Below, piece by piece: positions 25-30,493 of a DNA stretch of 64,000 bases (positions within the stretch are counted from its first letter, which is position 1; each line of letters opens with the position of its first letter). The notes under the pieces were generated by a model. The model searched no databases. It had not been told where the DNA came from and worked only from the letters and a program-made list of their open reading frames with translations. Position numbers and translations under genes: made by a program. Origin of the DNA: an uncultured delta proteobacterium. Its GTDB lineage: Bacteria; Desulfobacterota; Binatia; Binatales; Binataceae. Location of the stretch: the NCBI GenBank assembly GCA_963842085.1, contig CAWJET010000001.1, positions 672,001 to 736,000 on the forward strand, given 5' to 3'.

Positions 25-2352
25 TTAGAACTTGTATTGCAAACTCATATAAGCGGTGTTTCCGGTGAAAGGTGTCCAGTTGGAGTTGCCCAGGAACACC
101 GACTGAGGCGACGCCGCCATCCAGGGTGTCAACCGGTCGTAGCCGAAGTCATTCTCGCCAAAGTTGCTGAAAAGGTAGCCGATGGTCAGCGCCATGTTCT
201 TACGGAAAGGATAGCGGTAGGTGACAATCAACTCGTGGAAGCGCGAACCGACGTCCGGGAAACTCGTCGCTGGGCCAAGGGCGGCATCGCCATTTGCGTG
301 CGTTGCGTCATTCGTAACCGTGTAGTTGTACTGCGCTTGTATGGTCGAGGCGTTCGGTAGCACCTGGTTGGCGGGTATCGTGGCGTTAAAACCAACGTCA
401 ATTGAATTGCCCTGCTCACGACCGTAGCTAGTCCAAGTCTGACCAGGGCAAGTTGCGGGAGTTTGATGCTCGGGAACGGACGGACACTTTGGCTCACCCA
501 CGCCGCCCGGCTGGCGCTGGAAGGAGTTGAGATTCCAGTCCGTGGCGGTCCACGACCAGTCAGCATGCAGGTTTAGTCCCGCGAGCGGGGTCCAATTCAT
601 GCCGACGGAGGGGGTGTAGTCGGACCAGTGCTGCAGACCGAAGTCCGAGGACGGATATGAGTAATCGTCGTAGTCCATCTCGGCATAGAGCGTCAGCGGT
701 TTGAGCCACGGATTTTCTTCCAGCCAGGGGTTGCCTTCCCCGGCTTGAAAGGGCTGGGCGTCCGAATACAGCGAGAACTGATTGACGTGCACTGAGGCCT
801 CGTCGAAGCGGGTCAATTGACTGAACTCGGTTAAGCCGCCGTTCTGATTAACCAGACTCGTGCGATTGTTGTTATAGCCGGGAGAGTCACGGTCGGCATA
901 CTGGTACGAACCCCGCAACTCAAGCCATTCGTAGGGAGTCCAATCCAGCACCGGACCATACGAGGTCGTGTCTTGCTGCAGCACCATCATGCCGCCGTTG
1001 TGATTAGTCTGAATGTTGCCGACCAGACTGGCCACCATCGTCTCGGTTATGTTGTAGCTCGCTTCGCCCTGGATGTTCTGTGTGGAAAAAGCGAAGGGAT
1101 AAGCGGTGGCGCTCCACAGGCTGGCCGTATCATTCAATGAAAATACGTCCTTGAAGGTCACAGCGGGATCATGGTTGTCGTAGTCGAAGTAGCTGTAGGT
1201 GGCCTTTAGCCGCAGGCGGTCCAGCGGCCGGCTGACGACGCTGAAGTTGGCGAAGAATGGCGACACGTCACCGCCCAAGCTCTGCCGGGGAAGCGCTTGG
1301 GAGGGCAAGGCACCGTTGATCGTGAACGGGATGAAGCCCTGGTTCTGAAGCCACCATCCGTAAGAGACGCTGCCCATGAGGTGCGTGTCCATCGGCAGGT
1401 TGAGACCGGCGGTAGCCTCGAAAGTATGAGCCTCGTTGTCGGGGTAGGTGAAGTCGCGGCCGTTGCAGGGCCCAATGCCAGCGGAGCCCCCACCCGAGTA
1501 AATCGGAGAGTCAACGCAAGAACCGCCGGGGCCAGTCATTTCGCCCCAGGTGTTGGGGTTCTGCCAGGTAAGTGTGCTGTACTGGTTCTTGAAGAATGAG
1601 CCCTGATACTGAAGCCCGAGCAGCCAGGTTCCGTTAGCCCACTGCACGCCGACGCCGTAATTGTAAGTGTCGTACTCGATCGGCCGCGAAAGCTCGGTGA
1701 TATTGTACGCACCGGGGTTAGGACCGAACATTTCGCCATACTGGTTGTTGCCGCTTGGGTTCTGGAAATTGAAGTATGCCGAGTAGGTCCACTGGGGCGT
1801 AGGCGTGTAGCGGATGTTCAGGTTGGCGATCCCCTCCAACAGGCTGAGTGACAGCGGCTGGTCAGTCTTGTTTAGCCAGGAGGCGATGTTCGGACCCACG
1901 GTCGGCGTAGGCGCCGCTGGCTTCGAGGGCAGAGTGAAGTTGCCACCATTTTGCTGGTAAGGGCTCTCGGCAATGTCGTCGCTCAGAAAATGCGGAATTT
2001 CCTGCCACTGCGCATCGACATCCAGCAGGCCGTATTCCCCGAAATGGAGGTCGTACAATTCGTTGGTCTGGCCAACGTTGAGGGCGTGGAAGTCCGCGAA
2101 CGTCCGGCCCTCCTTGTCCTGAAGCAGTAACTTCAGCTCGGGCGATATTATCTGCTGCGCGAGGTCCTGATATTCGCGGAACTTGGCGACGTTGGTGGCC
2201 GGTACATTCTGCAGAAAAGCTCCGACCTCGGCCGAGCCCGTTGCGGTGTAATTGCTGCCGACGTTGACCTGGGCGGCGACGAACCGGGGTGTCAGCGTGA
2301 GCACTGTTAGAGCGATGACGAACGGTCGAAATATGAAACGCGGTAAATTCAT
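25..2352 (-). CDS. mtrB: MtrB/PioB-family decaheme-associated outer-membrane beta-barrel
   Basis: 775 aa; signal peptide; AKFREY motif near the N-terminus; aromatic-rich alternating strands; C-terminal YKF; directly downstream of a decaheme cytochrome; GAGGAGG RBS. Confidence 0.9.
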   Translation of the reverse strand: MNLPRFIFRPFVIALTVLTLTPRFVAAQVNVGSNYTATGSAEVGAFLQNVPATNVAKFREYQDLAQQIISPELKLLLQDKEGRTFADFHALNVGQTNELYDLHFGEYGLLDVDAQWQEIPHFLSDDIAESPYQQNGGNFTLPSKPAAPTPTVGPNIASWLNKTDQPLSLSLLEGIANLNIRYTPTPQWTYSAYFNFQNPSGNNQYGEMFGPNPGAYNITELSRPIEYDTYNYGVGVQWANGTWLLGLQYQGSFFKNQYSTLTWQNPNTWGEMTGPGGSCVDSPIYSGGGSAGIGPCNGRDFTYPDNEAHTFEATAGLNLPMDTHLMGSVSYGWWLQNQGFIPFTINGALPSQALPRQSLGGDVSPFFANFSVVSRPLDRLRLKATYSYFDYDNHDPAVTFKDVFSLNDTASLWSATAYPFAFSTQNIQGEASYNITETMVASLVGNIQTNHNGGMMVLQQDTTSYGPVLDWTPYEWLELRGSYQYADRDSPGYNNNRTSLVNQNGGLTEFSQLTRFDEASVHVNQFSLYSDAQPFQAGEGNPWLEENPWLKPLTLYAEMDYDDYSYPSSDFGLQHWSDYTPSVGMNWTPLAGLNLHADWSWTATDWNLNSFQRQPGGVGEPKCPSVPEHQTPATCPGQTWTSYGREQGNSIDVGFNATIPANQVLPNASTIQAQYNYTVTNDATHANGDAALGPATSFPDVGSRFHELIVTYRYPFRKNMALTIGYLFSNFGENDFGYDRLTPWMAASPQSVFLGNSNWTPFTGNTAYMSLQYKF

Positions 2353-2385
2353 CGACCTGTTCCTCCTCGTAAACCTTGGCTGCGC

Positions 2386-3465
2386 TCACCGAGTCAAGTC
2401 CACGCCACCGGGTGCATTTGATCCGTGAATCGCCGAATGACAATTGGTGCAAGCCTGGCTGAAGACAAATACCGTGCCCCGGCCAGACGGCGTGCCCGGA
2501 TGGAACGTCCCGATGTGGCACTGCTGGCACAACCGGGGCGGTCGCATCTTAAGCATCGAGCGGTTTATCGCACCGTGCGGGTCATGGCAGTTCAGGCAGT
2601 CCTGCACGACCGGTGGATGCATCCATAGGAACGGGCCGCGCTTCTCGGCGTGACAGGTGTAACAGGTCTCATTGACGGTGGCGCGCACCAGTTGATTAGG
2701 ATAAGGGCCGCCGTGTGGGTTGTGACAGTCGGTGCAGGTCATGAGTCCCTCGAACAGCGGCATGTGCGAGGGCAGCGTCATTTGCATCTTCTGCTTCAGG
2801 TGACAGCGCAAGCAGACCTGGGTCTCCGGGCGAGTGATGATGAAAGGATTCGACTCCATCGCCGACGCGAGCTGAAAGCGGGGACTTATCTGGCGCATAA
2901 TGGTGTGGCAGTCGGTGCAGCGTAAGCCGCGAAAGGCGTGAGTGCTTGCGTGCCAAAAGGCCTGCGCTCCGTTGTTGTGGCAATTCAGGCAGGCCGCGTT
3001 TTGCTGATCTGCCGCTTCCCCGGAATCGGCTCGGAAACTGATTACCCCGCCAGTACTAGGGCCGTGCATCACTTCGTCAGGCTTCTCATTTCGCCCCATA
3101 GCTTGAGCCATCGCGCCGACATAGCGACTGCCGGGTCCATGACAGGATTCGCATCCCCGCCCTTGCGCCTCGTCGCGAGGATGCTCGAGCATGATCTTGC
3201 CCATCATGGTCTGGCTAAATTCGTGTGTTACTCCTTGATGGCAGCTTTCACAGACTTTGTCACCCAGGTAAGTCGCAAGCGGCGCGGATTGGGCTGGAGT
3301 TACGGATTGCCCATTCGGCTGCGGTGAAGGCGCGACCGGCGTACTCGATGCGGCCGGCGGGGAGGCAGACGCCGCGGCGGCGGCGCCGCATCGATAACAG
3401 ACGAACACCACCCCGACCAGGACAAGGATAGCGATTCGCGGAAATCGCTTGAGGAAAGCAGTCAT
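2386..3465 (-). CDS. mtrA: MtrA/MtoA/DmsE-family periplasmic decaheme cytochrome c
   Basis: 10 CxxCH motifs counted; AEKRGPFLWMHPPV and CHSAIHGSNAP family motifs; start moved to MTAFLKR (signal peptide). Confidence 0.93.
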   Translation of the reverse strand: MTAFLKRFPRIAILVLVGVVFVCYRCGAAAAASASPPAASSTPVAPSPQPNGQSVTPAQSAPLATYLGDKVCESCHQGVTHEFSQTMMGKIMLEHPRDEAQGRGCESCHGPGSRYVGAMAQAMGRNEKPDEVMHGPSTGGVISFRADSGEAADQQNAACLNCHNNGAQAFWHASTHAFRGLRCTDCHTIMRQISPRFQLASAMESNPFIITRPETQVCLRCHLKQKMQMTLPSHMPLFEGLMTCTDCHNPHGGPYPNQLVRATVNETCYTCHAEKRGPFLWMHPPVVQDCLNCHDPHGAINRSMLKMRPPRLCQQCHIGTFHPGTPSGRGTVFVFSQACTNCHSAIHGSNAPGGVDLTR

Positions 3466-3508
3466 GGATGCGTACGGTCCCCGCGGCAAATTATCAGTAT
3501 TCTTGGTC

Positions 3509-4264
3509 CTACCGCAACTCGCCGCCGAGGGTGCGATGACGGCCTTGGTTGGCATCGTAACGTTGGTCGCCGCGCAGGTCCGCCAGCCTGCTAGAGAGCC
3601 ACGACAGCCACTCGTCCATTCCCTGGTTATCGCGTGCCGAAACCAACAGCAGGCGCGGCTGGGGCATCACCCTGGCGAGAGCGTCCTCGAATGATTGCGT
3701 GTGCACGTCTGGCAGATGCGGCAGCAGGTCGGCCTTGGTCAGCACGACCAGGTCGGCGCTGCGGAACATCACCGGGTACTTAAGCGGCTTGTCCTCGCCT
3801 TCAGTCACCGCCAGCGCGACTACATTCACGCGCTGACCCAGGTCGTAGACAGCCGGACAAACAAGATTGCCGACATTTTCGATGAAGAGTACGTCGCGAT
3901 CCTGCCAAGCGATGTCATGCAGGCCTCGATGCACCATCGCCGCGTCGAGATGGCAGGTTGACCCGGTCGTGATAGTGGCGGCCGGGATGCCGGCCGCGCG
4001 TAGGCGCTCGCCATCGTGGTCGGTGGCGAGATCGCCGCTGAGCGCGGCCAGCTTGACGCCGCGCGGAGCGAGAGCGCGCGCCGTCGCTTCGATGAGCGCT
4101 GTCTTACCTGAGCCCGGCGAGCCCATGAGATTTATCGCGAGCACGCCAGCAGAGGCGAAATGCTCGCGGTTGTGACGCGCTGCACTCTCATTCGCCTTGA
4201 GAATCCGCTCATGAAGGTCCACCGTGACGACTCGTTCGTCACCACAGCCGCAGGTCTGGCACAT
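3509..4264 (-). CDS. hypB: Hydrogenase nickel-insertion GTPase HypB
   Basis: MCQTCGC N-terminus, GSPGSGKT P-loop, CHLDA, ENVGNLVCPA, EGEDKPLKYP. Confidence 0.97.
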   Translation of the reverse strand: MCQTCGCGDERVVTVDLHERILKANESAARHNREHFASAGVLAINLMGSPGSGKTALIEATARALAPRGVKLAALSGDLATDHDGERLRAAGIPAATITTGSTCHLDAAMVHRGLHDIAWQDRDVLFIENVGNLVCPAVYDLGQRVNVVALAVTEGEDKPLKYPVMFRSADLVVLTKADLLPHLPDVHTQSFEDALARVMPQPRLLLVSARDNQGMDEWLSWLSSRLADLRGDQRYDANQGRHRTLGGELR

Positions 4265-4605
4265 CAGTTCACCTCCATCTCGATTCTGGTCAGCAGGATT
4301 TCATCCCCCTGGGCCAGGCATGCCGCGCCGCCGCACCCTACGCAGCGAAGCGCTCCATGCCGGGGAAGCTCGCAGCCGCACTGGCTGCACTTCCATACCG
4401 CCAGGACCGGCTCGATGGAAAGTGCTGCCTCTGCGCAAACTGTGCGCTCGCGGAAGATCTCATACGCGGTGGCGAGCAGGTCGCGATCGACGCCCGAAAG
4501 CTCGCCGACGCGCACGCAGACCCGGCGCACGGCGGTTGCGCCACGCGAGCGCGCCGTCGTGTCAACCTGCTCTATCAGCGCGCCTATAACCGAATACTCG
4601 TGCAC
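4264..4605 (-). CDS. hypA: Hydrogenase nickel metallochaperone HypA
   Basis: MHEYS N-terminus, two CxxC motifs, GDE motif. Confidence 0.95.
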   Translation of the reverse strand: MHEYSVIGALIEQVDTTARSRGATAVRRVCVRVGELSGVDRDLLATAYEIFRERTVCAEAALSIEPVLAVWKCSQCGCELPRHGALRCVGCGGAACLAQGDEILLTRIEMEVN

Positions 4606-4617
4606 CTACAATCCCTC

Positions 4618-5481
4618 TCACGCGCCGTTGAATTTCGGCGTCCGCTTCGCAATAAACGCCGCGAGTCCGTCGGCAAAGTCCGGCCCATTGGCGACTCGCG
4701 TCAGGCTCTCGAGTTCGCCATCGAGATGGCGATCGAGCATGTCCATGCCGCACGCCTGGTTGATGAGGGCCTTGGCCTCTGCCCAGGCGCGCGTGGGTCC
4801 CGCGGCCAGGCGCTCAACCAAGGCGAAGGTTTCAGCCTCGAATGTTTCATTGGGATGTACTGCCGTGACCAGCCCGATTTCCAGAGCGCGTCTCGCATCC
4901 AGCCGCGGGCTAAGGAACACGAGTTCCAGCGCACGCCTGAGTCCGAGCAGGCGCGGGAGCAGGAAGGTCGAGCTTTCGGCGCCGGTCAGCCCGGTCCGGC
5001 CGTAAGCCCATTCGAAGCTGGCGCGCTCGGAAGCGATGACCAGGTCGCACGCCATCGCGATTCCGAAACCGCCGGCCGCTGCAATCCCGTCCACCGCCGC
5101 CACGAACGGCTTTGCTGCCCGCCGGATCTCGGAGATGGTGCTGTGGATATACTCGACAATTTCCTTCAGCACTTCGCCGAAGCCCGCGCTTTGAGTTGTC
5201 GCCTCCGGTTTGAGGTAGTCGAGTTCGCGCTCATTCCCACCCGTTCGCACATATTTGAGATCGGCGCCGCTGCAAAATACGCCGCCCGAGCCGCGAATCA
5301 CCACCGCGCGCACTGACTCATCGCGCGCCAGCCGCAAACCCGCGCGCCGCAGATCCTGAGCGGTCGCAACGTCGAGCGAGTTGAAGTGCTCACGACGGTC
5401 GATGGTGATGACGCCCACGCCTGCGCGTGTGTCACACAGAACGTGTGGCGACGGGCGACGAGTTGGCTCTTTGACTTCCAT
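4618..5481 (-). CDS. Enoyl-CoA hydratase/isomerase (crotonase) family protein resembling the HypX C-terminal domain
   Basis: FCSGADL, KPFVAAVDGIAAAGG, ACDLVIAS crotonase motifs; AYGRTGLTGAESSTFLLPR; lies between hypE and hypA. Confidence 0.85.
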   Translation of the reverse strand: MEVKEPTRRPSPHVLCDTRAGVGVITIDRREHFNSLDVATAQDLRRAGLRLARDESVRAVVIRGSGGVFCSGADLKYVRTGGNERELDYLKPEATTQSAGFGEVLKEIVEYIHSTISEIRRAAKPFVAAVDGIAAAGGFGIAMACDLVIASERASFEWAYGRTGLTGAESSTFLLPRLLGLRRALELVFLSPRLDARRALEIGLVTAVHPNETFEAETFALVERLAAGPTRAWAEAKALINQACGMDMLDRHLDGELESLTRVANGPDFADGLAAFIAKRTPKFNGA

Positions 5482-5489
5482 GGTACTGC

Positions 5490-6521
5490 TCAGCAAATGC
5501 GCGGCAACGGTTCGCCTTCAGGTTCGGAGAGCAAGCGGCGGCCGAAGCCAGTGTCGAGAATCAGGCGCCCGGGCCGCTCTGCCGTGCAGGTCGCGACGAT
5601 CGCGGCGTTGCGGCCGAGCGGATGAGCGCGCAGGGCGTTAAGTACGCGCTCCGCGGATTCCGCGCGCACCCCGATGAGCGCCTTGCCCTCGTTGGCCACC
5701 ATCAGCGGGTCGATCCCAAGCAGCTCAGCCGCGGCGCGCACACCGGCGTTCAGCGGCACGCTTGGGCCGTTGAGCACGATCCCGACGCCGGCCTTTTGCG
5801 CCATTTCGCAAAGCGCGCTGACCACGCCGCCGCGCGTCGGATCCTTCATCGCAACCACGCCGTCGCCACCTGCGTCGAGCGCCTGGCGGACCATCATATT
5901 GAGAGGCGCCACATCCGACCGCAGATCGCCTTCGAGCGCGAGTTCGTGCCGGCACGCCATCACCGCGAGTCCGTGATCGCCGGCGGTTCCGCTGAGAATG
6001 ATCAGGTCGCCCGGCTTTAGGCCGGAATCGGGAACAACGCGGCGCGAGAGCGCGATGCCCGTCGTATTGAGCACGAGCCCGTCGATCTCGCCGCGGCCCA
6101 TGACCTTTGTGTCGCCGGTTAGAATCCGCGCGTCCGCCTCGCGGCAGGCAGCCTCGATTGAGTCGCGGACGCGTTCGAGGTCAGCGCGGGAAAACCCTTC
6201 TTCGACCACCACCGCGCAGGTGAGCGCCAGAACGTCGGTCGCACCCATCATCGCCAAGTCGTTGACAGTACCGGCGACCGCCAGCCGCCCGATATCGCCG
6301 CCGGGGAAAAAGATCGGACTGATCACGTGCGAGTCGGTGGTGATGACCAGCCATTGGTCCCCGAGCGCGATGGCCGCGCCGTCGTCCATTGCTGCCAGAC
6401 CGATTCCCGGCCCCGGCACGCCGTCCAACCGGTCGACGAAGAGTTCCTTGATGAGCGCGCGCATCGCGCGTCCACCGGCTCCATGCTTGAGCCCGATTCT
6501 GCTGTCTTCTTCGTCGACCAT
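5490..6521 (-). CDS. hypE: Hydrogenase maturation protein HypE
   Basis: HGAGG, TTDSHV, GTVNDLAM, DPTRGG, ANEGK, C-terminal PRIC. Confidence 0.97.
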   Translation of the reverse strand: MVDEEDSRIGLKHGAGGRAMRALIKELFVDRLDGVPGPGIGLAAMDDGAAIALGDQWLVITTDSHVISPIFFPGGDIGRLAVAGTVNDLAMMGATDVLALTCAVVVEEGFSRADLERVRDSIEAACREADARILTGDTKVMGRGEIDGLVLNTTGIALSRRVVPDSGLKPGDLIILSGTAGDHGLAVMACRHELALEGDLRSDVAPLNMMVRQALDAGGDGVVAMKDPTRGGVVSALCEMAQKAGVGIVLNGPSVPLNAGVRAAAELLGIDPLMVANEGKALIGVRAESAERVLNALRAHPLGRNAAIVATCTAERPGRLILDTGFGRRLLSEPEGEPLPRIC

Positions 6522-6531
6522 GGCGTCAGTT

Positions 6532-7665
6532 TCAACTACCCAAATCGGGCCTGCCTCCGTACTCCAGCCAGATGCGGCAAGTCCCTTCACTGCTCACCAT
6601 GCATGCGCCCACCGGATGGTCCGGCAAGCATTTGGTGCCGAAGAGCGGGCAGGCGCTCGGCGTTGCGATACCGGCCATGATGTCGCCGCATATGCACTGC
6701 GCGGCAAGCCGGGGCGGTGCGTACGACCACAGGCCGGTGAGGTCGATCTTGAAGCGCCGGCGTGCGTCGACCTGCGCCCATTCGTCGCGCAAGCGCAGGT
6801 TGCCGTTGGGCACGTGCGCAATTCCGCGCCATCGACCGCCGATCGACCGAAACACCCGCCACAACGCCTCCTGAGCATTGCGGTTTCCCTCGCGCGTGAC
6901 GCACCGCGGATAGGCGTTGACCACGGCCGCACGGCGATCACGAATCAGCTCGAGCAGGCGTGCGAGTCCGGCCAGAATATCGAGCGGTTCGAAGCCGGCC
7001 ACTACGACGGGTATATGATGATGCTCGACGAAACGCTCGAAGACTCCCCATCCAGTGATGGCGGCTGCGTGGCCCGCCGCAAGAAACCCTTCGACCCGTG
7101 TCGCAGGCATTTCGGCGACTATCTCCATCACCGGCGGGATGTACTTGTGAGCGGAGAGAACCGAGAAGTTGGATGGCGTGCCGGCCAGCAGGGCCGCCGC
7201 GGTGGCGACGGCTGTGGTCTCGAAGCCGCTGGCGAAGAACACCAGCTCTTCATCAATGCGGCGCGCCAGTTCCACCGCCTGCGACACGCTGTAGACGACG
7301 TCCACGCGCGCGCCATCCGCCCTCGCGTCTGCCAGCGACTTGACGCTTCCGGGCACGCGCAGCATGTCGCCGTAGGTCGCAATTCTCACTCCTGCAAGCG
7401 CAAGCGCGACCGCCTCGTCAACCTCGGGCAGATCGGTCACGCATACCGGACAGCCCGGTCCCATGATCACGTCGAGCGCGCGGGGCAAGCTGGCCCGCAA
7501 GCCGAAGCGCGCGATTGCCTGCTCGTGGCTTCCGCACACGTGCATCACTGAGATTGGCGCGCGGCCGATAGATTCGCACAGCCGGCCGAGCAGCGCGGTG
7601 AGCTCGCGTCCGCGCCGGGGATCGCGGAACTCGAGCACGCGGCCGTTCATCTGGCTGTCATCCAT
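6532..7665 (-). CDS. hypD: Hydrogenase maturation protein HypD
   Basis: CGSHE, GPGCPVC, GFETT, GACMVSSEGTC. Confidence 0.97.
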   Translation of the reverse strand: MDDSQMNGRVLEFRDPRRGRELTALLGRLCESIGRAPISVMHVCGSHEQAIARFGLRASLPRALDVIMGPGCPVCVTDLPEVDEAVALALAGVRIATYGDMLRVPGSVKSLADARADGARVDVVYSVSQAVELARRIDEELVFFASGFETTAVATAAALLAGTPSNFSVLSAHKYIPPVMEIVAEMPATRVEGFLAAGHAAAITGWGVFERFVEHHHIPVVVAGFEPLDILAGLARLLELIRDRRAAVVNAYPRCVTREGNRNAQEALWRVFRSIGGRWRGIAHVPNGNLRLRDEWAQVDARRRFKIDLTGLWSYAPPRLAAQCICGDIMAGIATPSACPLFGTKCLPDHPVGACMVSSEGTCRIWLEYGGRPDLGS

Positions 7666-7948
7666 CTTTTTTTCTCTCGCCAGCCGCAATTTCGCCGCGC
7701 ACGTCGGCCGCCATCAAATCCTCGCGCTCGGCTTCGCGCAGCAATTCCTCGTAAAGGGCAAGGGTGGCTTCGACCTCCGCGGCGGGAATCTTGCGGATCG
7801 CGTAACCGACATGATTGAGCACGTAGTCGCCGGGACCGACCGGCTCGTCAACGATGTCGAGCAGGACCTCCTTGCGCACGCCCCAGAAATCGACGGTCGC
7901 GACGGAACCTGAAACTCCGACCACTCTGCCCGGTACACCGAGGCACAT
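7658..7948 (-). CDS. hypC: Hydrogenase chaperone HypC
   Basis: MCLGVPG start overlapping the hypF stop (TGATG); GDYVLNHVGYAI. Confidence 0.96.
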   Translation of the reverse strand: MCLGVPGRVVGVSGSVATVDFWGVRKEVLLDIVDEPVGPGDYVLNHVGYAIRKIPAAEVEATLALYEELLREAEREDLMAADVRGEIAAGERKKDG

Positions 7949-10320
7949 CAGAGGCGGCCTCCCTTCGATTCGCGCACGCGTGCCGCGGCGACCATCGCTT
8001 GCCCGAGTGCGATACCGCCGTCTCCGGCCGGGACCTCGCGCGGCAAAAAAACCTGGGTAACGCCGGCCAGGGCGTCGAAGATTCCTTGCGCGAGCCGCGG
8101 ATTCTGAAAGCATCCGCCGCTCAGCACGACCGGGACTTGTCCGTGCTCTGCGAGCGCCGAGCGCACCGTCGCTGCTGTTCCTTCAATCAATGTGTTGTGA
8201 AAGCGCGCCGCGATCCGGCGGCGATCGGCGCCCGCGATAACTTCATGGACAATCCTGCGAACCATCGGCCGCAGATCCAGGCTCCACGGCTGCTGATTGC
8301 GATGGAGGGAAAATTCATAGACCCCGGTTTCACGGGGATCGGCGAGATTGTTGAGCATCATAGCGACCTGCCCTTCGTAGGCGGCATGCTGCTGCGCGAA
8401 GACCAGCGCACCAATCGCGTCGAAGTAGCGGCCGATGCCGTGCGCGCTTGCTGTATTCAGTCCGCTTGCGATCATGCGCCTTACGGTCGTCGCGGCGCCT
8501 GCATCGATCCGCGAGAAAAGCCCGAGCCGCTCGAATTCGTTAAACGACCCGCCGAAGGCATCCTCGATCAGCGCGAGCGCTAGCCGCCAGACCTCGCGCA
8601 CCGCGCGATCGCCGCCCGCCAGCGCGACCGGCCGAATCGTCGCAATCCGCTCGAAGCCGGCGAAATCCGCGAGCATCAACTCGCCGCCCCACATCGCGCC
8701 ATCGCTCCCGAGCCCCGACCCATCGAATGCGACCCCGAGAACCGGACCCGCAAGGCCGTGTTCCGCCATCGCACTCGCAACATGCGCATGATGATGCTGC
8801 ACCGCGACGGTAACGCACCCCTTGCGCCCCACCGCATAACGGGTCGAGAGATAATCAGGATGCAGGTCGTGCGCGATTATCTCGGGCTTCACGCCGACGA
8901 AGCCTTCCATCCTTGCGATCGACTCCTCAAAAGCCTCGTAGGTCTCGAGACCGTCGAGATCGCCGATGTGCGGACCGAACCAGATCGAATCCCCGCTGCC
9001 CAGGCAGAACGCATTTTTGAGTTGCGCTCCGACGGCCAGGACCGGTCGCTCGAATGGCGGATCGATTGGCACAGGACGTGGCACATAACCTCGCGAGCGG
9101 CGCAGCACGGTTGGAGCGCCTGCGATCATGCGCGCAACCGAGTCGTCGCATCGGGTCACGATTTCACGGTCGTGGATCAGAAAGAGGTCAGCAATCCCTC
9201 CCAGCCGAAGGAGCGCCTCATCGTTGCGATAGGCGATAGGTTCATCCGACCGGTTTCCCGACGTCATCACCAGCGGTCTCTGCGCTGCCGCCAGAAGCAG
9301 GTGATGCAACGGCGTGTACGCGAGCATGACGCCGACGAGCGGGGTTTCCGGCGCGACCTCGGCAGCGAGACCCGCATCCGGATGCCGGTGGGCGAGAACG
9401 ATCGGCCGCTCGGGCGAGGACAACAGTGCTCGCTCCGTGGGACCAAGAACGGCGAGGCGCTCGGCGTCTTCGAGCTCACGCACCATGACGGCGAACGGCT
9501 TTTCATCGCGATGTTTGCGGATGCGCAGCCGTGCGACCGCGGCCGCCGATGTGGCGTCGCAGGCGAGGTGAAACCCGCCAAGACCCTTGAGCGCGACGAT
9601 ACGCCCTTCGCGCACTGCGAGGGCCGCGTCGCCAATCGGGTGGCTCGATGCCAACTCGTCGCCCGCCGCTGCGAGCAGCCGCAGACTCGGGCCGCACTCG
9701 CGACAAGCGTTTGACTCCGCGTGAAAACGTCGATTACCGGGATCTCGGTACTCGCGCAGGCACTCGGCGCACATCTCGAACGCCGCCATCGTTGTCGCGC
9801 CGCGGTCGTAAGGGACATCACACGCGATCGTGAAGCGCGGGCCGCAGTTCGTGCAGTTGGTGAAGGCGTAACCGAAGCGGCGATCTCCGCGATCGAAGAT
9901 CTCGGCGACACATTCGCGACAGGTTGCCATGTCGGCGGGTATCGATACGCAGCGCTCCGCGCGCTGCTCGCTCGCGGCGATCTCGAAATGAGGCCGCTGC
10001 TCGAACTCCAGCAGGTTTGCCTGCACAGTCTTGAGTCGTGCCCGCGCAGGCGCCTCGGTAATCAGGCGACTGACAAAGCGGTCCAGCACTACGCGCGAAC
10101 CGAAGGCTTCTATAATGACGCCCGCCGCGTCGTTACGAACGCTGCCGGTCAGCCCCTCTTCACGCGCCAGCCGGTAGACGAAAGGCCGGAAGCCGACGCC
10201 CTGCGAAATTCCCGTCACTTTGATCTTGCGGCCCGCGAGTCCTGACACATCCATATCAGGGTCGACTGCATGGGACGGTGAGAAGCAGACGTCCGCGAGC
10301 TGTGGCTCCTCACCGTTCAT
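7948..10320 (-). CDS. hypF: Carbamoyltransferase HypF
   Basis: QGVGFRPFVY acylphosphatase domain, zinc fingers (CTNCGPR), KGLGGFHL, HHHAH, DGGIALGQ. Confidence 0.97.
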   Translation of the reverse strand: MNGEEPQLADVCFSPSHAVDPDMDVSGLAGRKIKVTGISQGVGFRPFVYRLAREEGLTGSVRNDAAGVIIEAFGSRVVLDRFVSRLITEAPARARLKTVQANLLEFEQRPHFEIAASEQRAERCVSIPADMATCRECVAEIFDRGDRRFGYAFTNCTNCGPRFTIACDVPYDRGATTMAAFEMCAECLREYRDPGNRRFHAESNACRECGPSLRLLAAAGDELASSHPIGDAALAVREGRIVALKGLGGFHLACDATSAAAVARLRIRKHRDEKPFAVMVRELEDAERLAVLGPTERALLSSPERPIVLAHRHPDAGLAAEVAPETPLVGVMLAYTPLHHLLLAAAQRPLVMTSGNRSDEPIAYRNDEALLRLGGIADLFLIHDREIVTRCDDSVARMIAGAPTVLRRSRGYVPRPVPIDPPFERPVLAVGAQLKNAFCLGSGDSIWFGPHIGDLDGLETYEAFEESIARMEGFVGVKPEIIAHDLHPDYLSTRYAVGRKGCVTVAVQHHHAHVASAMAEHGLAGPVLGVAFDGSGLGSDGAMWGGELMLADFAGFERIATIRPVALAGGDRAVREVWRLALALIEDAFGGSFNEFERLGLFSRIDAGAATTVRRMIASGLNTASAHGIGRYFDAIGALVFAQQHAAYEGQVAMMLNNLADPRETGVYEFSLHRNQQPWSLDLRPMVRRIVHEVIAGADRRRIAARFHNTLIEGTAATVRSALAEHGQVPVVLSGGCFQNPRLAQGIFDALAGVTQVFLPREVPAGDGGIALGQAMVAAARVRESKGGRL

Positions 10321-10724
10321 GTCTCACCCAGCGTGTGGATGTACGCGACCAGGTCCCAGATCTGGCGGTCGGTGAGCGTCGACCACGACGGCATCGCGGC
10401 CCCCTGGACGCCGTCATGAATCGCCCGATAAGTCTGCCACGCGTTCGCCGAATCGGACCATGGCGGGACTGTGAGATTGCCCGGCGGCGGCTCCATTCCC
10501 ATGCTGCGGACGCCGTGCCCGTCGCCTCTCTCGCCGTGGCAAATTACGCAATTCTGCATGAAGAGCGCGCGTCCTCTTTCTCTCGCCTCGCGCGACGCAA
10601 AGAGCCCGGATGGAGCCTGCGCTGCGCCGGGCGGTCTACCGCTCCTGCTGCACCCGATTATCGCGCACAACATCCCCAGCGCAGCTGTCGCGACCCTCCG
10701 CGCCACTCTTCGGCGACAGTTCAT
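10317..10724 (-). CDS. Monoheme cytochrome c, probable lipoprotein
   Basis: Single CVICH, distal AMP methionine, IIGC lipobox-like signal; start uncertain because of overlap with the protease ORF. Confidence 0.85.
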   Translation of the reverse strand: MNCRRRVARRVATAALGMLCAIIGCSRSGRPPGAAQAPSGLFASREARERGRALFMQNCVICHGERGDGHGVRSMGMEPPPGNLTVPPWSDSANAWQTYRAIHDGVQGAAMPSWSTLTDRQIWDLVAYIHTLGET

Positions 10725-11187
10725 ATCCAAGACCTCGAGCCTCACGCACTATCGCCTCGACCAGCCCCTCCAATCCCGCGTCGACAGGATCGGAACGCTC
10801 AATACTCAAATCCATTGTTTCCGGCACCAGTCCCAGCAAGGTGACCGAGGTTGGAAAAGAGTCGATGAGTCGCGCGGCGTCGAAAAGATCTGCAACCCCA
10901 ACCTGGTGAGGGGACAGGCGCTCGCGGACTGCGGGTGGCACCTCGTCTCCGTCGATTCGGACCAGTGTTCCCGGCGGAGCATCGACGCGAACCGCATCTA
11001 CCAGAATCACGTGTTCCGACTCGGCAAACAGCCCAAGCAGTGCGAGCCCAAGCGTGCCGCCATCTGCAACCCGAACCCGTGGCGGAATATTGTAATTGCG
11101 TTCGAGCCGAGCCACTGCGGCGGCGCCGAGTCCGTCGTCGCGAAGCAGTATATTGCCAAGCCCGAGAACCAATAATTCGTCAGGCAT
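10636..11187 (-). CDS. hyaD: Hydrogenase maturation endopeptidase (HyaD/HupD family)
   Basis: GLGNILLRDDGLG, DGGTLG, DAV, SPHQVG. Confidence 0.95.
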   Translation of the reverse strand: MPDELLVLGLGNILLRDDGLGAAAVARLERNYNIPPRVRVADGGTLGLALLGLFAESEHVILVDAVRVDAPPGTLVRIDGDEVPPAVRERLSPHQVGVADLFDAARLIDSFPTSVTLLGLVPETMDLSIERSDPVDAGLEGLVEAIVREARGLGYELSPKSGAEGRDSCAGDVVRDNRVQQER

Positions 11188-11896
11188 CGCGTTTCCTCTC
11201 CGCGACGCCTTCCGGGCCTACGCGCTTGTACCCCGAAAATATCGAATCGATGATCCCGCTGCGCTCCGTCATAGAAAAAAGAGTCGCCGAGTACACGTGA
11301 TGAATCATGAAGATCAGGAGCAACCACATCCCGACATGATGGACCAGGCGCACCATCTGAAGTCCGCCGAAAATCGGGATCAGGAACCCGAAGAACTGAA
11401 AAGGCGAGTTCACTCCGGCATAGACGGTATAGAGAGCGAGACCGGTGCCGATCATTGTGAAGTAGATCAAGAAGATAACTGCGTAGGTTGCACCGGCCAT
11501 CCCGCTGTGGCCGGCGTACGGCTCCGGGTCGCGGCGCACAAAGCCATAAAAGCGCATCGACTGCCAGATGCTGCTAAAGCGTTCGCGCGTGACCGGAATG
11601 AACTGGTGCCAACGCGCATAGTAATTGCCGGCGAACATCCAGTAGACACGCACAAATACCGACAAACTGAAGACGACGGCCGCATACAGGTGGATCAGGC
11701 GCATGGTGCCCATAACGAAGTGATCGCGGGCGGGCCCACTGACTGCGATAAACGGATGACCTATATAGAAGCCCGTAACCGCAAGCACTGCGATCGAAAG
11801 AACGATCAGCCAGTGCGTGATGCGCACCGGCAGTTCCCAGGCATAGACAAGGCCGGAGCCGGGCGGCTCCGGCACAGGCCGCGGCAGTGCGCTCAC
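11180..11896 (-). CDS. hyaC: [NiFe]-hydrogenase cytochrome b subunit
   Basis: WELPVRITHW, four hydrophobic helices, His ligands (IHL, VHH, HHVY); GTG start overlaps the large-subunit stop. Confidence 0.93.
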   Translation of the reverse strand: MSALPRPVPEPPGSGLVYAWELPVRITHWLIVLSIAVLAVTGFYIGHPFIAVSGPARDHFVMGTMRLIHLYAAVVFSLSVFVRVYWMFAGNYYARWHQFIPVTRERFSSIWQSMRFYGFVRRDPEPYAGHSGMAGATYAVIFLIYFTMIGTGLALYTVYAGVNSPFQFFGFLIPIFGGLQMVRLVHHVGMWLLLIFMIHHVYSATLFSMTERSGIIDSIFSGYKRVGPEGVAERKRDA

Positions 11897-13602
11897 AGGA
11901 CCTTGACGCGGGCCAACTCGCGCCTCCTGGCGTCCACCACGTGAACGCCGCACGCCATGCACGGATCGAATGAGTGCACCGTGCGGAGTATTTCGAGTGG
12001 TTGATCCGGCTTCGCCACCGGAGTGCCGACGAGCGACGCCTCGTAAGGACCCGGCTGGTTCGCATGGTCCCGCGGGCCGGCATTCCAGGTGCTCGGCACG
12101 ACACACTGGTAGTTCACGATCTGGCCGTTGCTGATGTGAACCCAGTGGCCGAGAGACCCGCGCGGCGCTTCGTGAAAGCCGGCGCCGTAACAGTCGGCGG
12201 GCCAGCTCTCCGGCTCCCATTTCGAGTTGTCCTGGATACGGTAGTCACGGCGCGCCATGTTCTCGCCCAGGGCGGTTACCCAGTCGCCCATCTTTTCCAC
12301 CACGACCTGAGTCTCAATGGCGCGCGCCGCCACTCGCCCCAAGGTCGAGAACAGCGCTTGCGGTCCAACGCCGAGCGCCGCCAGGGCTTTGTCAACCAGT
12401 TGCTTGACCTGCGCCGGCCGGCCCGACACGTACGCGACCAGCATGCGCGCGAGCGGCCCAACCTCCATCGGCGCACCCTCATAGCGCGGTGATTTGAGCC
12501 AACTGTACTTCTCCGCCAGCACCAGTCGTTCGTACGGCGGCTTGGGTCCGGTGTAATGCGGGTCGGTTTCCCCCTTGTACGGATGTAGCGCTTCGCTGTC
12601 GCCGCCTGAATATTCGTACCAGGAATGTGCGACCTGCTCCGTGATCTTTCCCTGGTCAACCGGCTCGACCTTTGAAATATCGCGCCCCCGGATTATCCCG
12701 GATGGCATCCATAGCTCAGGATTTTCGCTGTCGTCCTCGGGATAATCGCCATACACCATGTAGTTGCCGACGCCCGCGCCGATCGAAGCCCAATCCTTAT
12801 AGAATGATGCGACTGCCAGGACGTCGGGCAAATAGACACGCTTGACGAAGTCGCGGCCTTCGGCGATGAGCTTGTCGAGCGCCGAGATCGTGTCGGCGTT
12901 GAGCGCGGCTTGCGAGTCGGGATCAACCGGCGTCGCCATGCCACCGACCAGGAAACTTTGCAGGTGCGGATTTTTTCCGCCCAGGATCGCATGGATCTTG
13001 ATGAAGCGCCGCTGCCAGTCGAGCGCCTCCAGATAATGCGCAACCGCCATCAGATTCGCCTCGGGCGGCAGGCGGTACGCCGGATGACCCCAGTAGGCGT
13101 TAGCGAAGGGCCCAAGCTGGCCGCGCTGAACGAACGTACTGATCCGGTCGCGTACTCCCGAAAAATACTTTGCACTCGACAGCGACCAGTCTGAGATCGA
13201 CTGGGCAAGCGTGGCGGTCTTGGCCGGATCGGCCTTGAGCGCCGAGGTGATATCGACCCAGTCGAGTGCATGCAGATGGTAGAAATGGATCACGTGGTCG
13301 TGGACGCACTGCGCCGCGATGATGAGGTTGCGCAGCAGCCGCGCGTTGGGCGGCGGTTGCGCGCCGATTGCGTGCTCGACGGCGCGAATCGAGGCGATCG
13401 CGTGAACTGTGGTGCAAACTCCGCAGATGCGTTGGGTGAAGACCCATGCGTCACGCGGATCTCGCCCCTTGAGAATGATCTCGATGCCGCGAAACATCGT
13501 CGACGACGACCAGGCCTCATTCACCTTGCCGCCATCGACTTCGGCTTCTATTCGGAGATGCCCTTCGATGCGCGTTATCGGATCAACGACGACGTGGGTC
13601 AT
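11893..13602 (-). CDS. hyaB: Group 1 [NiFe]-hydrogenase large subunit
   Basis: DPITRIEGH; L1 QRICGVCTTVH; L2 SFDPCMACGVH plus cleavable C-terminal tail. Confidence 0.97.
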   Translation of the reverse strand: MTHVVVDPITRIEGHLRIEAEVDGGKVNEAWSSSTMFRGIEIILKGRDPRDAWVFTQRICGVCTTVHAIASIRAVEHAIGAQPPPNARLLRNLIIAAQCVHDHVIHFYHLHALDWVDITSALKADPAKTATLAQSISDWSLSSAKYFSGVRDRISTFVQRGQLGPFANAYWGHPAYRLPPEANLMAVAHYLEALDWQRRFIKIHAILGGKNPHLQSFLVGGMATPVDPDSQAALNADTISALDKLIAEGRDFVKRVYLPDVLAVASFYKDWASIGAGVGNYMVYGDYPEDDSENPELWMPSGIIRGRDISKVEPVDQGKITEQVAHSWYEYSGGDSEALHPYKGETDPHYTGPKPPYERLVLAEKYSWLKSPRYEGAPMEVGPLARMLVAYVSGRPAQVKQLVDKALAALGVGPQALFSTLGRVAARAIETQVVVEKMGDWVTALGENMARRDYRIQDNSKWEPESWPADCYGAGFHEAPRGSLGHWVHISNGQIVNYQCVVPSTWNAGPRDHANQPGPYEASLVGTPVAKPDQPLEILRTVHSFDPCMACGVHVVDARRRELARVKVL

Positions 13603-14710
13603 GCTCGGGGCCCTCTGAACTGCTCTTGGAACCGGCCGGCTCGGTTCCCGTGTGATGCCGCACGATCTGGCCGACACCATGGGCGACCGACGCCGCGCCC
13701 ACAATTCCCGCCGCGGCCAAGCCAATCCGATCGAGGTTGGCGTTCACGTTGAATCCAGGAACATTGGGCAAGCGCCGATAGAAAGGCGTCATGGTGTCCC
13801 AGAAATTCGGCTCCGCACAGCCGACACACGGATGGCCGCAGCCGATCGGCCAGTTCGTGCCCTCATTCCATCGCACTTCCGGACAGTTTTGCGAGGTCGC
13901 GGGCCCTTTGCATCCCATCTTGTACAGGCAGGCGCCGTTCCGATGGGCTTCGTCGCCCCAAGCCTCGACGTACTGTCCGGCATCGAAGTGTGCGCGCCGT
14001 TCGCAGTTGTCGTGGATGAGTTTTCCGTAGGCGAAAAGCGGACGCCGGTACCGATCCAGTGGCGGCCACTGCTTCATGGTCATGTAGTAAACAATTAGCG
14101 CCGTTATGTTCTCGGCGTTCATCGGGCATGCTGACATATTGATCAGGTTGTTGACGCCCGGCACCGCATCGCCGACCGAGACCGCGCCGGTCGGGTTGGG
14201 GCGCGCCGCCGGTATCCCGCCGAAGGTCGCGCAGGTGCCGACCGCGATCGTTGCCGCAGCCTTGCCGCACACTTCGCGCGCGATCTGCAAAGCGCTGCGA
14301 CCGCCGATGGTGCAATAGGCTCCGTCGGCACCTGTGGGAATCGCTCCTTCAACCAGGGCTATGTACTTTCCCGCGAAGTCGCGAACCGTGCTGTCAAGCG
14401 CGCTCTCAGCTTGAAAGCCGGCTGCAGCCATCAGGGTTTCGTGGTAGTTCAGCGAAATCGAATCCAGGATGAGGTCACCGACGGTCGGGTGACTCGCGCG
14501 CAAAAACGACTCCGTGTTACCGGCACAGTCCTGAAACTCGAGCCAGACGAGAACGGGCTTCGGCGCCATCTCGATATTTGCGGCAATCATGCTGGCCGCC
14601 GTCTCCGGCATCGCCAGCAGCGTCGCCATCGAGGCACAGAATTTCAGGAAATCGCGGCGTGACACGCCGCGGTACGCGAGCTCTTTACCCAGCCAGCTAT
14701 TGGACGCCAT
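13583..14710 (-). CDS. hyaA: Group 1 [NiFe]-hydrogenase small subunit (Tat-exported, membrane-anchored)
   Basis: SRRDFLK Tat motif, DCAGN proximal motif, HDNC, CLYKMGCKGP, HPCVGC, C-terminal anchor with His; AGGAGG RBS. Confidence 0.97.
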   Translation of the reverse strand: MASNSWLGKELAYRGVSRRDFLKFCASMATLLAMPETAASMIAANIEMAPKPVLVWLEFQDCAGNTESFLRASHPTVGDLILDSISLNYHETLMAAAGFQAESALDSTVRDFAGKYIALVEGAIPTGADGAYCTIGGRSALQIAREVCGKAAATIAVGTCATFGGIPAARPNPTGAVSVGDAVPGVNNLINMSACPMNAENITALIVYYMTMKQWPPLDRYRRPLFAYGKLIHDNCERRAHFDAGQYVEAWGDEAHRNGACLYKMGCKGPATSQNCPEVRWNEGTNWPIGCGHPCVGCAEPNFWDTMTPFYRRLPNVPGFNVNANLDRIGLAAAGIVGAASVAHGVGQIVRHHTGTEPAGSKSSSEGPEHDPRRR

Positions 14711-14791
14711 CGGCGGTCCTCCTGCTAGAACAACCCGGTGGTTGGAGTCTCGTGGCGTGCTGCGCACGCCGCACCCTCTGTGAATAGGCGA

Positions 14792-15405: not shown

Positions 15406-16155
15406 ATGGCACCACCCGCGTCACGCAACGCATCGATCAGGCAGAGCGCGGCCAGGCCGCCCCAACCTCGCGCAATAAGCGCCGAGAACCTGGGTAAATT
15501 GGAAGGACTGTCGGGCCTGCCGCTACGCAAACTTGAAGCCTTGCGCGCCAGGATGAGGATTCGCCAGTTCTCCAAACGCTCGATCATCTATGAGGAGGGT
15601 GAATCAGAACGCGCCGTCTACGTCCTGCTGTCGGGAATCGCCCGGCTTATCTGTCTCAGTCGAAAACGGAAACGCAACCTGCTCGAGGTGCTGGGACCCG
15701 GCGACGTGATCGAGATTCCGTCATTGTTGCCCGATATTCATCATAAGCTCACCTGCGAGACGTTCACGGATTGTCAAATTGGGCTGATCAGCCCAAGCGA
15801 GCTGGTCGAGGGCATCGTCGGCATTCCACTGCGCGAGTTCAACGAGGCGCTCAATTTGACGGTCGGCCGATGGTGGACGCTTTTGGAGCGCCATTCAAAC
15901 TTTCTCGATCAAACCGTTCGCGAGAGAATCGCAATCGCGTTGCTCGACCTCGGCCGGAAGTTCGGTCGGCGAGACGGGCGCCGGATCGTCATAGATGTGG
16001 ATCTGAGTGGTCAGGACATCGCGGACCTGGTGGAGTGCTCGCGGCCGAAAGCGAGCGAGTGCCTCAAGAAGCTGGTTGCCGAAGGCGTTGTCATGCGCGA
16101 ACACCGCCGTTTCATCATCGATTCGGCGAAAATTGAGACTAGCCTGCGATCCTGA
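15406..16155 (+). CDS. Crp/Fnr-family transcriptional regulator
   Basis: cNMP-binding-like domain (IYEEGE...VYVLLSG...GPGDVI) and C-terminal HTH (LSGQDIADLVECSRPKAS); start uncertain. Confidence 0.88.
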   Translation: MAPPASRNASIRQSAARPPQPRAISAENLGKLEGLSGLPLRKLEALRARMRIRQFSKRSIIYEEGESERAVYVLLSGIARLICLSRKRKRNLLEVLGPGDVIEIPSLLPDIHHKLTCETFTDCQIGLISPSELVEGIVGIPLREFNEALNLTVGRWWTLLERHSNFLDQTVRERIAIALLDLGRKFGRRDGRRIVIDVDLSGQDIADLVECSRPKASECLKKLVAEGVVMREHRRFIIDSAKIETSLRS

Positions 16156-19798: not shown

Positions 19799-20779
19799 TT
19801 GACGACCACCGATCCGAGGATGCGCTTTTTCATTTTTGCGCTACGCACCGCAACCGAGGCCGCGGCTCAGGCGGCCTTCGAATGGATCGGACGCGGCGAC
19901 AAGGAGATGGGGGATAAAGCCGCGGTCACCGCGCTGCGCCGAGTGCTCAACCAGCTTCCGATCGACGGCACGATCGTGATCGGAGAAGGCGAGAAGGATG
20001 AGGCGCCTCAGCTCTACAACGGCGAGCGAGTCGGCAATCCCGACGCACCCGAGAAACTCGACATCGCCGTCGATCCGGTCGAGGGAACGAGCTACCTGGC
20101 GATGGGTCTTAGCAACGCCATGGTGGTGATCGCGATGGCGCCGCGCGGTACAATGTTCAGCCCCGGACCCGCATTTTACATGGAAAAGTTCGCAGCACCG
20201 CCTGCCGCCAAGGGGCAAATCGACATGGCCTGGCCGGTCGAGCGCAAGCTCAAAAAGCTCGCCGAGATCCTCGGCAAGCCCGTTTCGAAGCTGACCGTCT
20301 TCGTCCTGGAAAAGCCGCGGCACCGCCGGCTAGTCGAGGAGATCTATGCGGCCGGTGCCCGCGTGATGCAGTATCCGGCCGGTGATGTGGCTGGCGCATT
20401 GATGGCCGCGATTCCGGATTCAGCGGTGGACGCGCTGATGGGCACCGGCGGAACGCCCGAGGGAATCCTGACGGCCTGCGCGATCCGCGCGCTCGGAGCC
20501 GAGTTCATGGGACGGCTCGACCCGCAGCTTGCAACCGAAGCTGCGGTTGTGAAGCAGGCGGGGATGGACACCCAACGGTGGTATCGTGTGGAGGAACTGG
20601 TGCGTTCGCCCGAGACGCTGTTCTGCGCGACCGGGATCACGTCGGGACTGCTGCTTGATGGCATCGAGCGCGCCGAGACATATGATCGCTTACAGACCCT
20701 GATGATCTCCGGCATTACAGGAGAGCGCCAGATTCTGACGAGCTACCTGCCGACCGCGGCATCATTGAAGACCGCTTAG
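19799..20779 (+). CDS. glpX: Class II fructose-1,6-/sedoheptulose-1,7-bisphosphatase GlpX
   Basis: GEGEKDEAP, DPVEGT, YMEK, GGTPEG, ATGITSG. Confidence 0.95.
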   Translation: MTTTDPRMRFFIFALRTATEAAAQAAFEWIGRGDKEMGDKAAVTALRRVLNQLPIDGTIVIGEGEKDEAPQLYNGERVGNPDAPEKLDIAVDPVEGTSYLAMGLSNAMVVIAMAPRGTMFSPGPAFYMEKFAAPPAAKGQIDMAWPVERKLKKLAEILGKPVSKLTVFVLEKPRHRRLVEEIYAAGARVMQYPAGDVAGALMAAIPDSAVDALMGTGGTPEGILTACAIRALGAEFMGRLDPQLATEAAVVKQAGMDTQRWYRVEELVRSPETLFCATGITSGLLLDGIERAETYDRLQTLMISGITGERQILTSYLPTAASLKTA

Positions 20780-20794
20780 GAGGAGAAAATTGTA

Positions 20795-21730: not shown

Positions 21731-21805
21731 GCAGGGCTTCGGATTTCCACCGGATCCAGGTCAGCTTGAGGGCGGCAAACCGACACCGAGGCGGAGGATA
21801 AAGCG

Positions 21806-24377
<2,572 letters not shown>

Positions 24378-24392
24378 CGGAGGAGCCGGATC

Positions 24393-24812
24393 ATGAGAAT
24401 TACACAGGGAGCGTTCTCGTTCCTTCCCGATTTCACGGAAGACGAAGTCCGCGCGCAGCTCGAGTATTGCCTGCGCAACGGATGGGCAATAAACATCGAG
24501 TACACGGACGATCCGCATCCGCGCAACAGCTACTGGGAGTTGTGGGGACAGCCGATGTTCGATCAGAAGGATGCGGCCGCCGTGCTGGCTGAACTGGATG
24601 AGTGCCGCAAGGTACACCCGAACCATTACATAAAGATTAACGCCTTCGACTCGTCCAAGGGGCGCGAGTCGATTGCGCTCTCCTTCATTGTCAACCGGCC
24701 CCGCAAGGAGCCTGGCTTCGTTCTGGTCCGGCAGGAGGGGACAGGCCGCACAGTCCGCTATACTATTCGCAGCTACGCCACCGACCGGCCCGAAGGCGAA
24801 CGATACGATTGA
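24393..24812 (+). CDS. cbbS: RuBisCO small subunit, red-type
   Basis: [19 protein letters not shown], red-type C-terminal extension. Confidence 0.97.
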
Positions 24813-24821
24813 TGACGGCGT

Positions 24822-26846: not shown

Positions 26847-26875
26847 ACCTTTGCTTCCCTTGCGAATCGCTGTGC

Positions 26876-30489: not shown

Positions 30490-30493
30490 GCCG

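Follow-up and report, generated by a model that had tools for sequence, protein, structure and literature searches.

A free-standing crotonase encoded in a hyp operon as a candidate source of the CO ligand of [NiFe] hydrogenase

Introduction

Why should a crotonase be encoded in the middle of a hydrogenase maturation operon? The question is raised by a stretch of 64,000 nucleotides from an uncultured bacterium of the Binataceae, here termed the window, in which a crotonase-fold gene on the minus strand (4618-5481, 287 amino acids), carrying the motif AYGRTGLTGAESSTFLLPRLLG, is sandwiched between hypE and hypA. The known system that invites comparison is HypX (HoxX) of Cupriavidus necator (plasmid pHG1), Rhizobium leguminosarum and Aquifex aeolicus (PDB 6J0P), which generates CO from N10-formyl-THF via formyl-CoA during aerobic synthesis of the [NiFe] cofactor, and whose chemistry was reportedly described by Schulz et al. 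in 2020. It is only in HypX-bearing organisms that the origin of the CO ligand of [NiFe] hydrogenases is known. In a 2025 review (PMC12134894) the source for organisms without HypX is listed as unresolved, and the origin of formyl-CoA for a reaction of the decarbonylase type is raised there as a further question. The original prediction for this locus, drawn from the sequence of the window, had seen in the gene a stand-alone 'half-HypX' that might release CO from formyl-CoA made elsewhere. Here we ask how far this reading holds.

Organization of the operon

The presence of a crotonase gene between hypE and hypA was borne out by the open reading frame, by a Pfam match to ECH_1 (E 5.6e-46) with no other domain, and by the identification of HypE and HypA as the neighbouring products. 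The open reading frame spans 4618-5496 on the minus strand, starts with TTG and encodes 292 amino acids. The ATG at 5481, located 8 nt past the hypE stop, is likely the true start; as it yields a protein of 287 residues, the length of the closest homologues, we consider the coordinates 4618-5481 to be right. Note that residue numbers used throughout (Tyr165, Glu174 and others) follow the 292-residue frame. The gene is part of a [NiFe]-hydrogenase island that covers 25-14767 of the window on the minus strand and starts with the genes for the small and the large subunit. In the direction of reading, its features are the following:

13583-14767, minus strand: [NiFe] hydrogenase small subunit with a Tat-type leader (best PDB match 1H2A_S, 330 bits; alignment)
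11893-13725, minus strand: [NiFe] hydrogenase large subunit (listed reading frame, homology from about 13590; best PDB match 3MYR_B, 716 bits)
11180-12220, minus strand: b-type cytochrome subunit (Pfam Ni_hydr_CYTB; listed reading frame, the true start probably lying further in)
10636-11187, minus strand: hydrogenase maturation endopeptidase of the HyaD/HycI type (Pfam HycI, 7e-25)
10317-10745, minus strand: monohaem cytochrome c gene in the interval between the protease gene and hypF (Pfam Cytochrome_CBB3 / Cytochrom_C)
7948-10320, minus strand: hypF (Pfam acylphosphatase, zf-HYPF, Sua5 and HypF_C)
7658-7948, minus strand: hypC (Pfam HupF_HypC; product begins with MCLGVPG; one-base overlap between the hypC ATG and the stop of hypF)
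6532-7689, minus strand: hypD (Pfam HypD, 4e-123)
5490-6590, minus strand: hypE (Pfam AIRS and AIRS_C; stop 8 nt before the crotonase ATG; adjoins the crotonase gene in related loci)
4618-5481, minus strand: hyp-linked crotonase (reading frame, Pfam ECH_1, family and motif, AlphaFold2 pLDDT 92.8; alternative TTG start at 5496)
4264-4605, minus strand: hypA (Pfam HypA, 1.1e-24; GTG start 12 nt after the crotonase stop, with GAGGGA ahead of it)
3509-4264, minus strand: hypB, a GTPase (Pfam cobW/HypB/UreG)
2386-3555, minus strand: multihaem c-type cytochrome with paired CXXCH motifs, directly after hypB
25-2352, minus strand: outer-membrane porin of the MtrB/PioB type, following the multihaem cytochrome

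A distinct crotonase family

An AlphaFold2 model of the protein (pLDDT 92.8) shows the crotonase fold, and its best Foldseek matches are the ordinary crotonases 4LK5 and 3P5M and PaaG, with TM values to 4LK5 of 0.81 and 0.96 when normalized to query and target length, respectively. A sequence search against the PDB likewise retrieved ordinary crotonases as the best solved relatives, at about 118 bits and 33-34% identity. Among the 74 NCBIfam families matched, the 25 best that were listed all stayed below their cut-offs; the top match was alternative oxepin-CoA hydrolase, with 167.8 against a cut-off of 300, and the score for PaaG (TIGR02280) was 154.9 bits against 345.15. PaaG, the 1,2-epoxyphenylacetyl-CoA isomerase (6SL9, 3HRX, 4FZW_C), is thus, together with 4LK5 and 3P5M, closest by sequence and fold, but it differs from the window protein in its catalytic Asp136, replaced by Ala173, in the score below the PaaG cut-off, and in a paa rather than a hyp gene context.

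The crotonase and its relatives form a distinct and strongly conserved family. It is tight, with at least 59% identity, and in the loci examined its members occur in hyp operons only. The best 120 relatives listed at 90% clustering are 67-94% identical to the crotonase; they originate from Binataceae, Acidobacteriota and Vicinamibacteria and, where named at all in the source, are labelled PaaG isomerase or enoyl-CoA hydratase. In a library for which the clustering threshold was 50% identity, a single full-length representative with 562 bits stands for the family, followed by fragments, and the next full-length crotonases score about 228 bits or less at no more than 45% identity. The nearest of some 38 crotonase paralogues in the organism's own genome is 36% identical. 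We found no description of a stand-alone or PurN-paired hyp crotonase in the full-text literature, and the family is seemingly an undescribed one dedicated to hydrogenase maturation. One further protein, P0162 (278 amino acids, on a 3-kb contig), may belong to the periphery of the family; this crotonase is 38% identical and has the sequence FEWAY and an S-A-E loop replacing P-D-G.

Genomic context was analyzed in two independent scans, and both bear on the expectation in the original prediction that orthologues would be confined to hyp operons, which they were. The first scan used one genome per species and yielded 42 loci with at least five phylum labels, comprising Binataceae, several classes of Acidobacteriota, Myxococcota/'delta proteobacterium', Gemmatimonadaceae and Spirochaetota. 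In 42 of 42 the crotonase gene directly adjoins hypE or has nothing but a formyltransferase gene in between, and in 31 hypA comes next. A cytochrome c match is found at the equivalent place in the operon in 21 of the 42. The second scan retained 80 loci on metagenome contigs; hypE or the formyltransferase gene lies upstream in all 61 contigs with at least 400 nt of upstream sequence, and 76 of the 80 loci contain at least one hyp gene, the remaining four having very short flanks or the formyltransferase gene only. Two loci of the collection show individual arrangements: the order in L049 (6877-9886) is hypD, crotonase, hypE, and L065 (8001-8276) has only a crotonase fragment, residues 87-178, after hypE.

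Within a sample of 121 genomes from the window's class the crotonase was detected in 7 and HypE in 30, counts that may miss a few, as part of the first-look candidates was scored in these searches. The crotonase gene adjoins hypE in all seven carriers, and the HypE encoded there is at least 64% identical to that of the window. The remaining 23 HypE proteins, 40-58% identical to the window's, come without the crotonase. In a phylum-level sample, which included four genomes of the class, one of 151 genomes contained the crotonase, and this was the window's own.

Relationship to HypX

By descent, the designation 'half-HypX' did not hold. In comparisons with hhalign the profile of the HypX C-terminal domain scored 172.9 against the crotonase family and again 172.9 against a generic PaaG-like outgroup, while the family and this outgroup scored 558.9 against one another; the best solved relatives of the window protein, as outlined above, are ordinary crotonases, and HypX (6J0P) was found neither among the 60 listed of 204 PDB sequence matches nor among the Foldseek matches listed. 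As the family is overall no nearer to HypX than ordinary crotonases are, the protein is better described as an analogue than as half of HypX. In a tree of seven HypX C-terminal domains, 14 family members and 32 other crotonases, HypX joins the branch between the family, here including P0156 and P0162, and the generic outgroup, which is where any distant crotonase would root the tree.

The overall architecture differs as well. HypX is a fusion of 550-600 residues, whereas the window crotonase is a separate protein of 287 residues with ECH_1 as its only domain. A. aeolicus HypX is a monomer according to structural work (PMC6802093), while the model of the window protein best matches ordinary crotonases. 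In the same work HypX is described as part of a 1:1:1 complex with HypC and HypD. Apparent fused forms of the family, P0121-P0123, were discarded, as they look like read-through or frameshift calls with out-of-frame stretches rich in Arg, Ala and Pro. Among plasmid matches, H20 (Mesorhizobium huakuii) and H27 (Sulfurovum mangrovi) have a HypX whose annotation comprises two genes, one for a formyltransferase family protein and one for an enoyl-CoA hydratase-related or hypothetical protein, which may be true splits or frameshifts.

There are nevertheless likenesses, namely the location in a hyp operon beside hypE, the crotonase fold, a Tyr and a Glu that align with the pair named as catalytic in HypX, a G-[AS]-E loop, the Ala in a GxAxAGG segment, and, in many relatives of the window crotonase, a formyltransferase that is encoded alongside. 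As the family derives from PaaG-like crotonases and not from HypX, the likeness of the active sites looks convergent.

Residues of the active site

In the window protein the segment in question reads A164-Y165-G-R-T-G-L-T-G-A-E174-S-S-T-F-L-L-P-R-L-L-G. For comparison we assembled HypX of C. necator (pHG1) and six further plasmid-encoded HypX proteins, and all seven display HY-x2-MG(N)LYGSEYWTY-x-LP, so that the HypX motif given in the original prediction was correct. The residues at positions 145 and 165 of the crotonase are Gly and Tyr, not Glu, in the columns that we take to be those of the two catalytic glutamates of rat enoyl-CoA hydratase (Glu144 and Glu164), the match to which covers residues 123-289 versus 93-258.

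The catalytic pair of HypX is named as Tyr416/Glu426 in A. aeolicus, corresponding to Tyr439/Glu449 in Ralstonia eutropha, and in the same study both residues lie beside the CoA thiol and are treated as required (PMC6802093). BLASTP aligned the crotonase with HypX at 31% identity over 172 residues (E 9e-13), and in this alignment as well as with hhalign and MAFFT Tyr165 aligns with Tyr439 and Glu174 with Glu449. Both are invariant in all 39 full-length family members, and their spacing of nine residues is equal in four of the seven HypX proteins. The predicted conservation of the HypX pair therefore stands as far as the alignment is concerned, but half of it carries little information: a Tyr at position 165 is common to most near relatives of the PaaG-like kind and was present in 15 of the 16 nearest unrelated crotonases, so that only Glu174 discriminates.

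A broader comparison with 30 outgroup sequences identified 29 positions at which the family has an invariant residue that is rare in the outgroups. Five of these, A57, A141, V153, G172 and E174, bear the residue of the HypX majority, and three, E174, G172 and A141, are invariant both in the family and in all seven HypX proteins. The outgroups have Gly (22 of 30), Pro (26 of 30) and Gly (30 of 30) at columns 174, 172 and 141, respectively, and Glu in none. Positions 172-174 are P-D-G in the outgroups, G-A-E in the family and G-S-E in HypX, and A141, judged by the offset in numbering, shares its column with Ala392 of A. aeolicus. In the alignment to 6SL9 the catalytic Asp136 of PaaG, for which a D136N entry is among the Foldseek matches, coincides with Ala173; this column holds Asp in 29 of 30 outgroups, but Ala in 39 of 39 family members.

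A partner formyltransferase in related loci

HypX combines its crotonase domain with a formyltransferase, and a formyltransferase gene is also found next to the crotonase gene in a large number of related loci. A gene for a protein of 240-270 amino acids is located between hypE and the crotonase gene in 18 of the 42 genome loci and 35 of the 80 metagenome loci, which lends independent support to a link with formyl-group chemistry as originally proposed. The best NCBIfam match of this partner is PurN, with 80.6 bits against a cut-off of 150.1, and among solved structures GAR transformylases are the best relatives; all 15 aligned copies have the catalytic His and Asp, and the Asn is retained in at least 90%. 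HypX's N-terminal domain, in contrast, is of the Fmt/FDH type and includes a Formyl_trans_C part that the PurN-type partner is devoid of, and from this difference it follows that the same pair of folds was recruited independently. Judging from these sequence relationships, the hypE-linked formyltransferase and crotonase are the predicted two-gene counterpart of the fused HypX, built from different subfamilies.

The window itself represents a one-gene form. The crotonase belongs to the same family in both arrangements, and the tree mixes the two forms. In agreement with the statement in the original prediction that no formyltransferase accompanies the crotonase, neither a formyltransferase domain nor a gene for one was detected in the window, and the partner was not found in the organism's own genome either, where its best match is PurN with 34.9 bits and the other matches are PurN-, PurU- and Fmt-like relatives, not copies of it. 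The partner was also absent from all five other partner-less genomes. PurN-like best matches in such genomes reached 28-46 bits, compared to 182-233 bits for true, unframeshifted copies.

With the nearest crotonases as the root of the family tree, the deepest branches are those of the forms that carry the pair, so that the partner-less state is derived, and the tree implies three or more losses of the partner. The window crotonase is placed in a partner-less clade labelled Binataceae. The partner-less form makes up 24 of the 42 genome loci and occurs under several taxon labels. Between the crotonase and its partner-less relatives L024-L026 we obtained a dN/dS of about 0.07 (0.07-0.09) at a dS of about 0.5, which means strong purifying selection and indicates that the crotonase is functional without the partner.

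HypX, candidate sources of formyl-CoA and lifestyle

A fused HypX is absent from the organism's own genome, where no reading frame of more than 333 amino acids matches Formyl_trans_N, and canonical HypX is likewise absent from all ten other carrier genomes, in which the best matches reach at most 51 bits and extend over a single domain. The best match to the HypX C-terminal domain in each carrier genome is the hyp-linked crotonase itself, although weakly (30-42 bits). The best match to the HypX N-terminal domain, an Fmt-like paralogue at C1:1083972, was rejected, with no hyp gene in the 3.6 kb around it. In the class sample a HypX-like fragment was present in one of 121 genomes, and 23 of the 30 HypE-bearing genomes have neither the crotonase nor HypX; neither of the two is thus generally required.

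For the supply of formyl-CoA, the best formyl-CoA transferase candidate in the own genome stays below the cut-offs (428.7 against 442 and 420.8 against 504.2), no match to oxalyl-CoA decarboxylase in this genome passes the cut-off, and no common downstream gene able to make formyl-CoA was seen in eight partner-less loci.

The window and the genome also hold information on the lifestyle of the organism. Five COX1 genes for haem-copper oxidases are encoded in the genome, and two gene clusters of the window are of relevance:

19799-25799: Calvin-cycle cluster a few kb from the hydrogenase genes, with GlpX-type FBPase, phosphoribulokinase, class II aldolase, RuBisCO large subunit and a CbbX-like AAA protein
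25947-36600: respiratory genes, with a multicopper oxidase-like reading frame, COX2 with a fused cytochrome c domain, a UbiA-family prenyltransferase (haem O synthase-like) and COX1 (34894-36600)

The combination of oxidases, RuBisCO and phosphoribulokinase makes an aerobic, hydrogen-driven autotrophy plausible.

Proposed function and alternatives

We consider it probable, at roughly 55%, that the crotonase is an accessory enzyme which releases CO from formyl-CoA for the CO ligand of the [NiFe] hydrogenase, as suggested by its gene context, its active-site residues and the recurrent formyltransferase. In this mechanism the free-standing protein would bind the formyl thioester of CoA, with formyl-CoA as the substrate and CO as the product, Tyr165 and Glu174 would act as the base in the way proposed for HypX, and the CO would be passed on to the Fe(CN)2CO group that is built on HypCD. 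A genome that has lost the partner would have to obtain formyl-CoA from elsewhere, with an Frc-like CoA-transferase or the action in trans of a housekeeping formyltransferase as candidate sources. A more specific version is offered more tentatively: the family may consist of stand-alone formyl-CoA decarbonylases that arose from PaaG-like crotonases independently of HypX, are fed by a cellular pool of formyl-CoA without a channelled formyltransferase, and supply the CO ligand in aerobic maturation.

The most serious alternative, in our view a less likely one, is a maturation accessory with a different chemistry, be it a hydrolase or isomerase for the CoA thioester of another acyl group, an adaptor for HypCD that binds CoA, or a decarbonylase for another acyl donor, so that its product would not be CO from formyl-CoA. 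A strict hyp context indeed reveals a link to maturation rather than a reaction, the descent from PaaG-like isomerases and hydrolases, with alternative oxepin-CoA hydrolase and PaaG as best NCBIfam matches, would fit such a role, and the retention of the crotonase through three or more losses of the formyltransferase means that a dedicated formyl-THF donor is dispensable to it. On the other hand, the repeated pairing with a formyltransferase points to a formyl group, and the active site has departed from that of PaaG, with Ala in place of the catalytic Asp in every one of the 39 members and a loop that copies the G-[AS]-E of HypX.

That the crotonase of this genome is a leftover of the two-gene module, its role gone with the formyltransferase, is very improbable. 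The derived nature of the partner-less state is compatible with such a remnant, as is locus L065, where only a fragment of the crotonase is retained, but the low dN/dS of 0.07-0.09 among partner-less relatives, motif residues that are all intact, the tight spacing of 8 nt to hypE and 12 nt to hypA, and the maintenance of this form in 24 of 42 loci under several labels all argue against decay. Least of all do we expect an ordinary crotonase of a fatty-acid or phenylacetate pathway that resides in the operon by chance, since its generic best relatives (enoyl-CoA hydratases and PaaG) and the numerous paralogues in the genome are outweighed by the constant position in 42 of 42 and 61 of 61 loci, the distance to the nearest of those paralogues, the isolation of the family in the 50% library, and the failure of the best listed families to reach a curated cut-off, together with the loss of the PaaG Asp.

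If the release of CO from formyl-CoA is indeed the function of this family, it would constitute a second aerobic route to the CO ligand, widespread in lineages from soil and sediment with labels such as Binataceae and Acidobacteriota, and an active site for CO formation would have evolved convergently. The family provides a small and separately expressible candidate for the decarbonylation step alone, and as it occurs naturally with and without a formyl-THF-dependent partner, the chemistry of the HypX C-terminal domain, the roles of Tyr and Glu and the feeding with free formyl-CoA become directly testable. It may also aid heterologous production of hydrogenases in air, and annotation stands to gain for genes now labelled PaaG isomerase or plain enoyl-CoA hydratase.

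Further observations on the hydrogenase locus

The first proximal-cluster motif of the small subunit is C-A-G-N (residues 81-84, window 14516-14527), in place of C-T-C-C in HoxK of C. necator and C-T-G-C in the enzyme from D. vulgaris. In related loci this motif appears as CAGN (L058, L059), CAGD (L060) and DTGC (L049), so that one of the usual cysteine ligands seems to be swapped for Asn or Asp in this hydrogenase lineage. At the other end of the island, the multihaem cytochrome and the MtrB/PioB-type porin (25-3555) resemble an extracellular electron-transfer module, and L024, L025 and L080, the closest relatives, also have this pair beside the operon. A gene for a regulator of the Crp/Fnr type (15406-16155) is oriented divergently from the hydrogenase operon.
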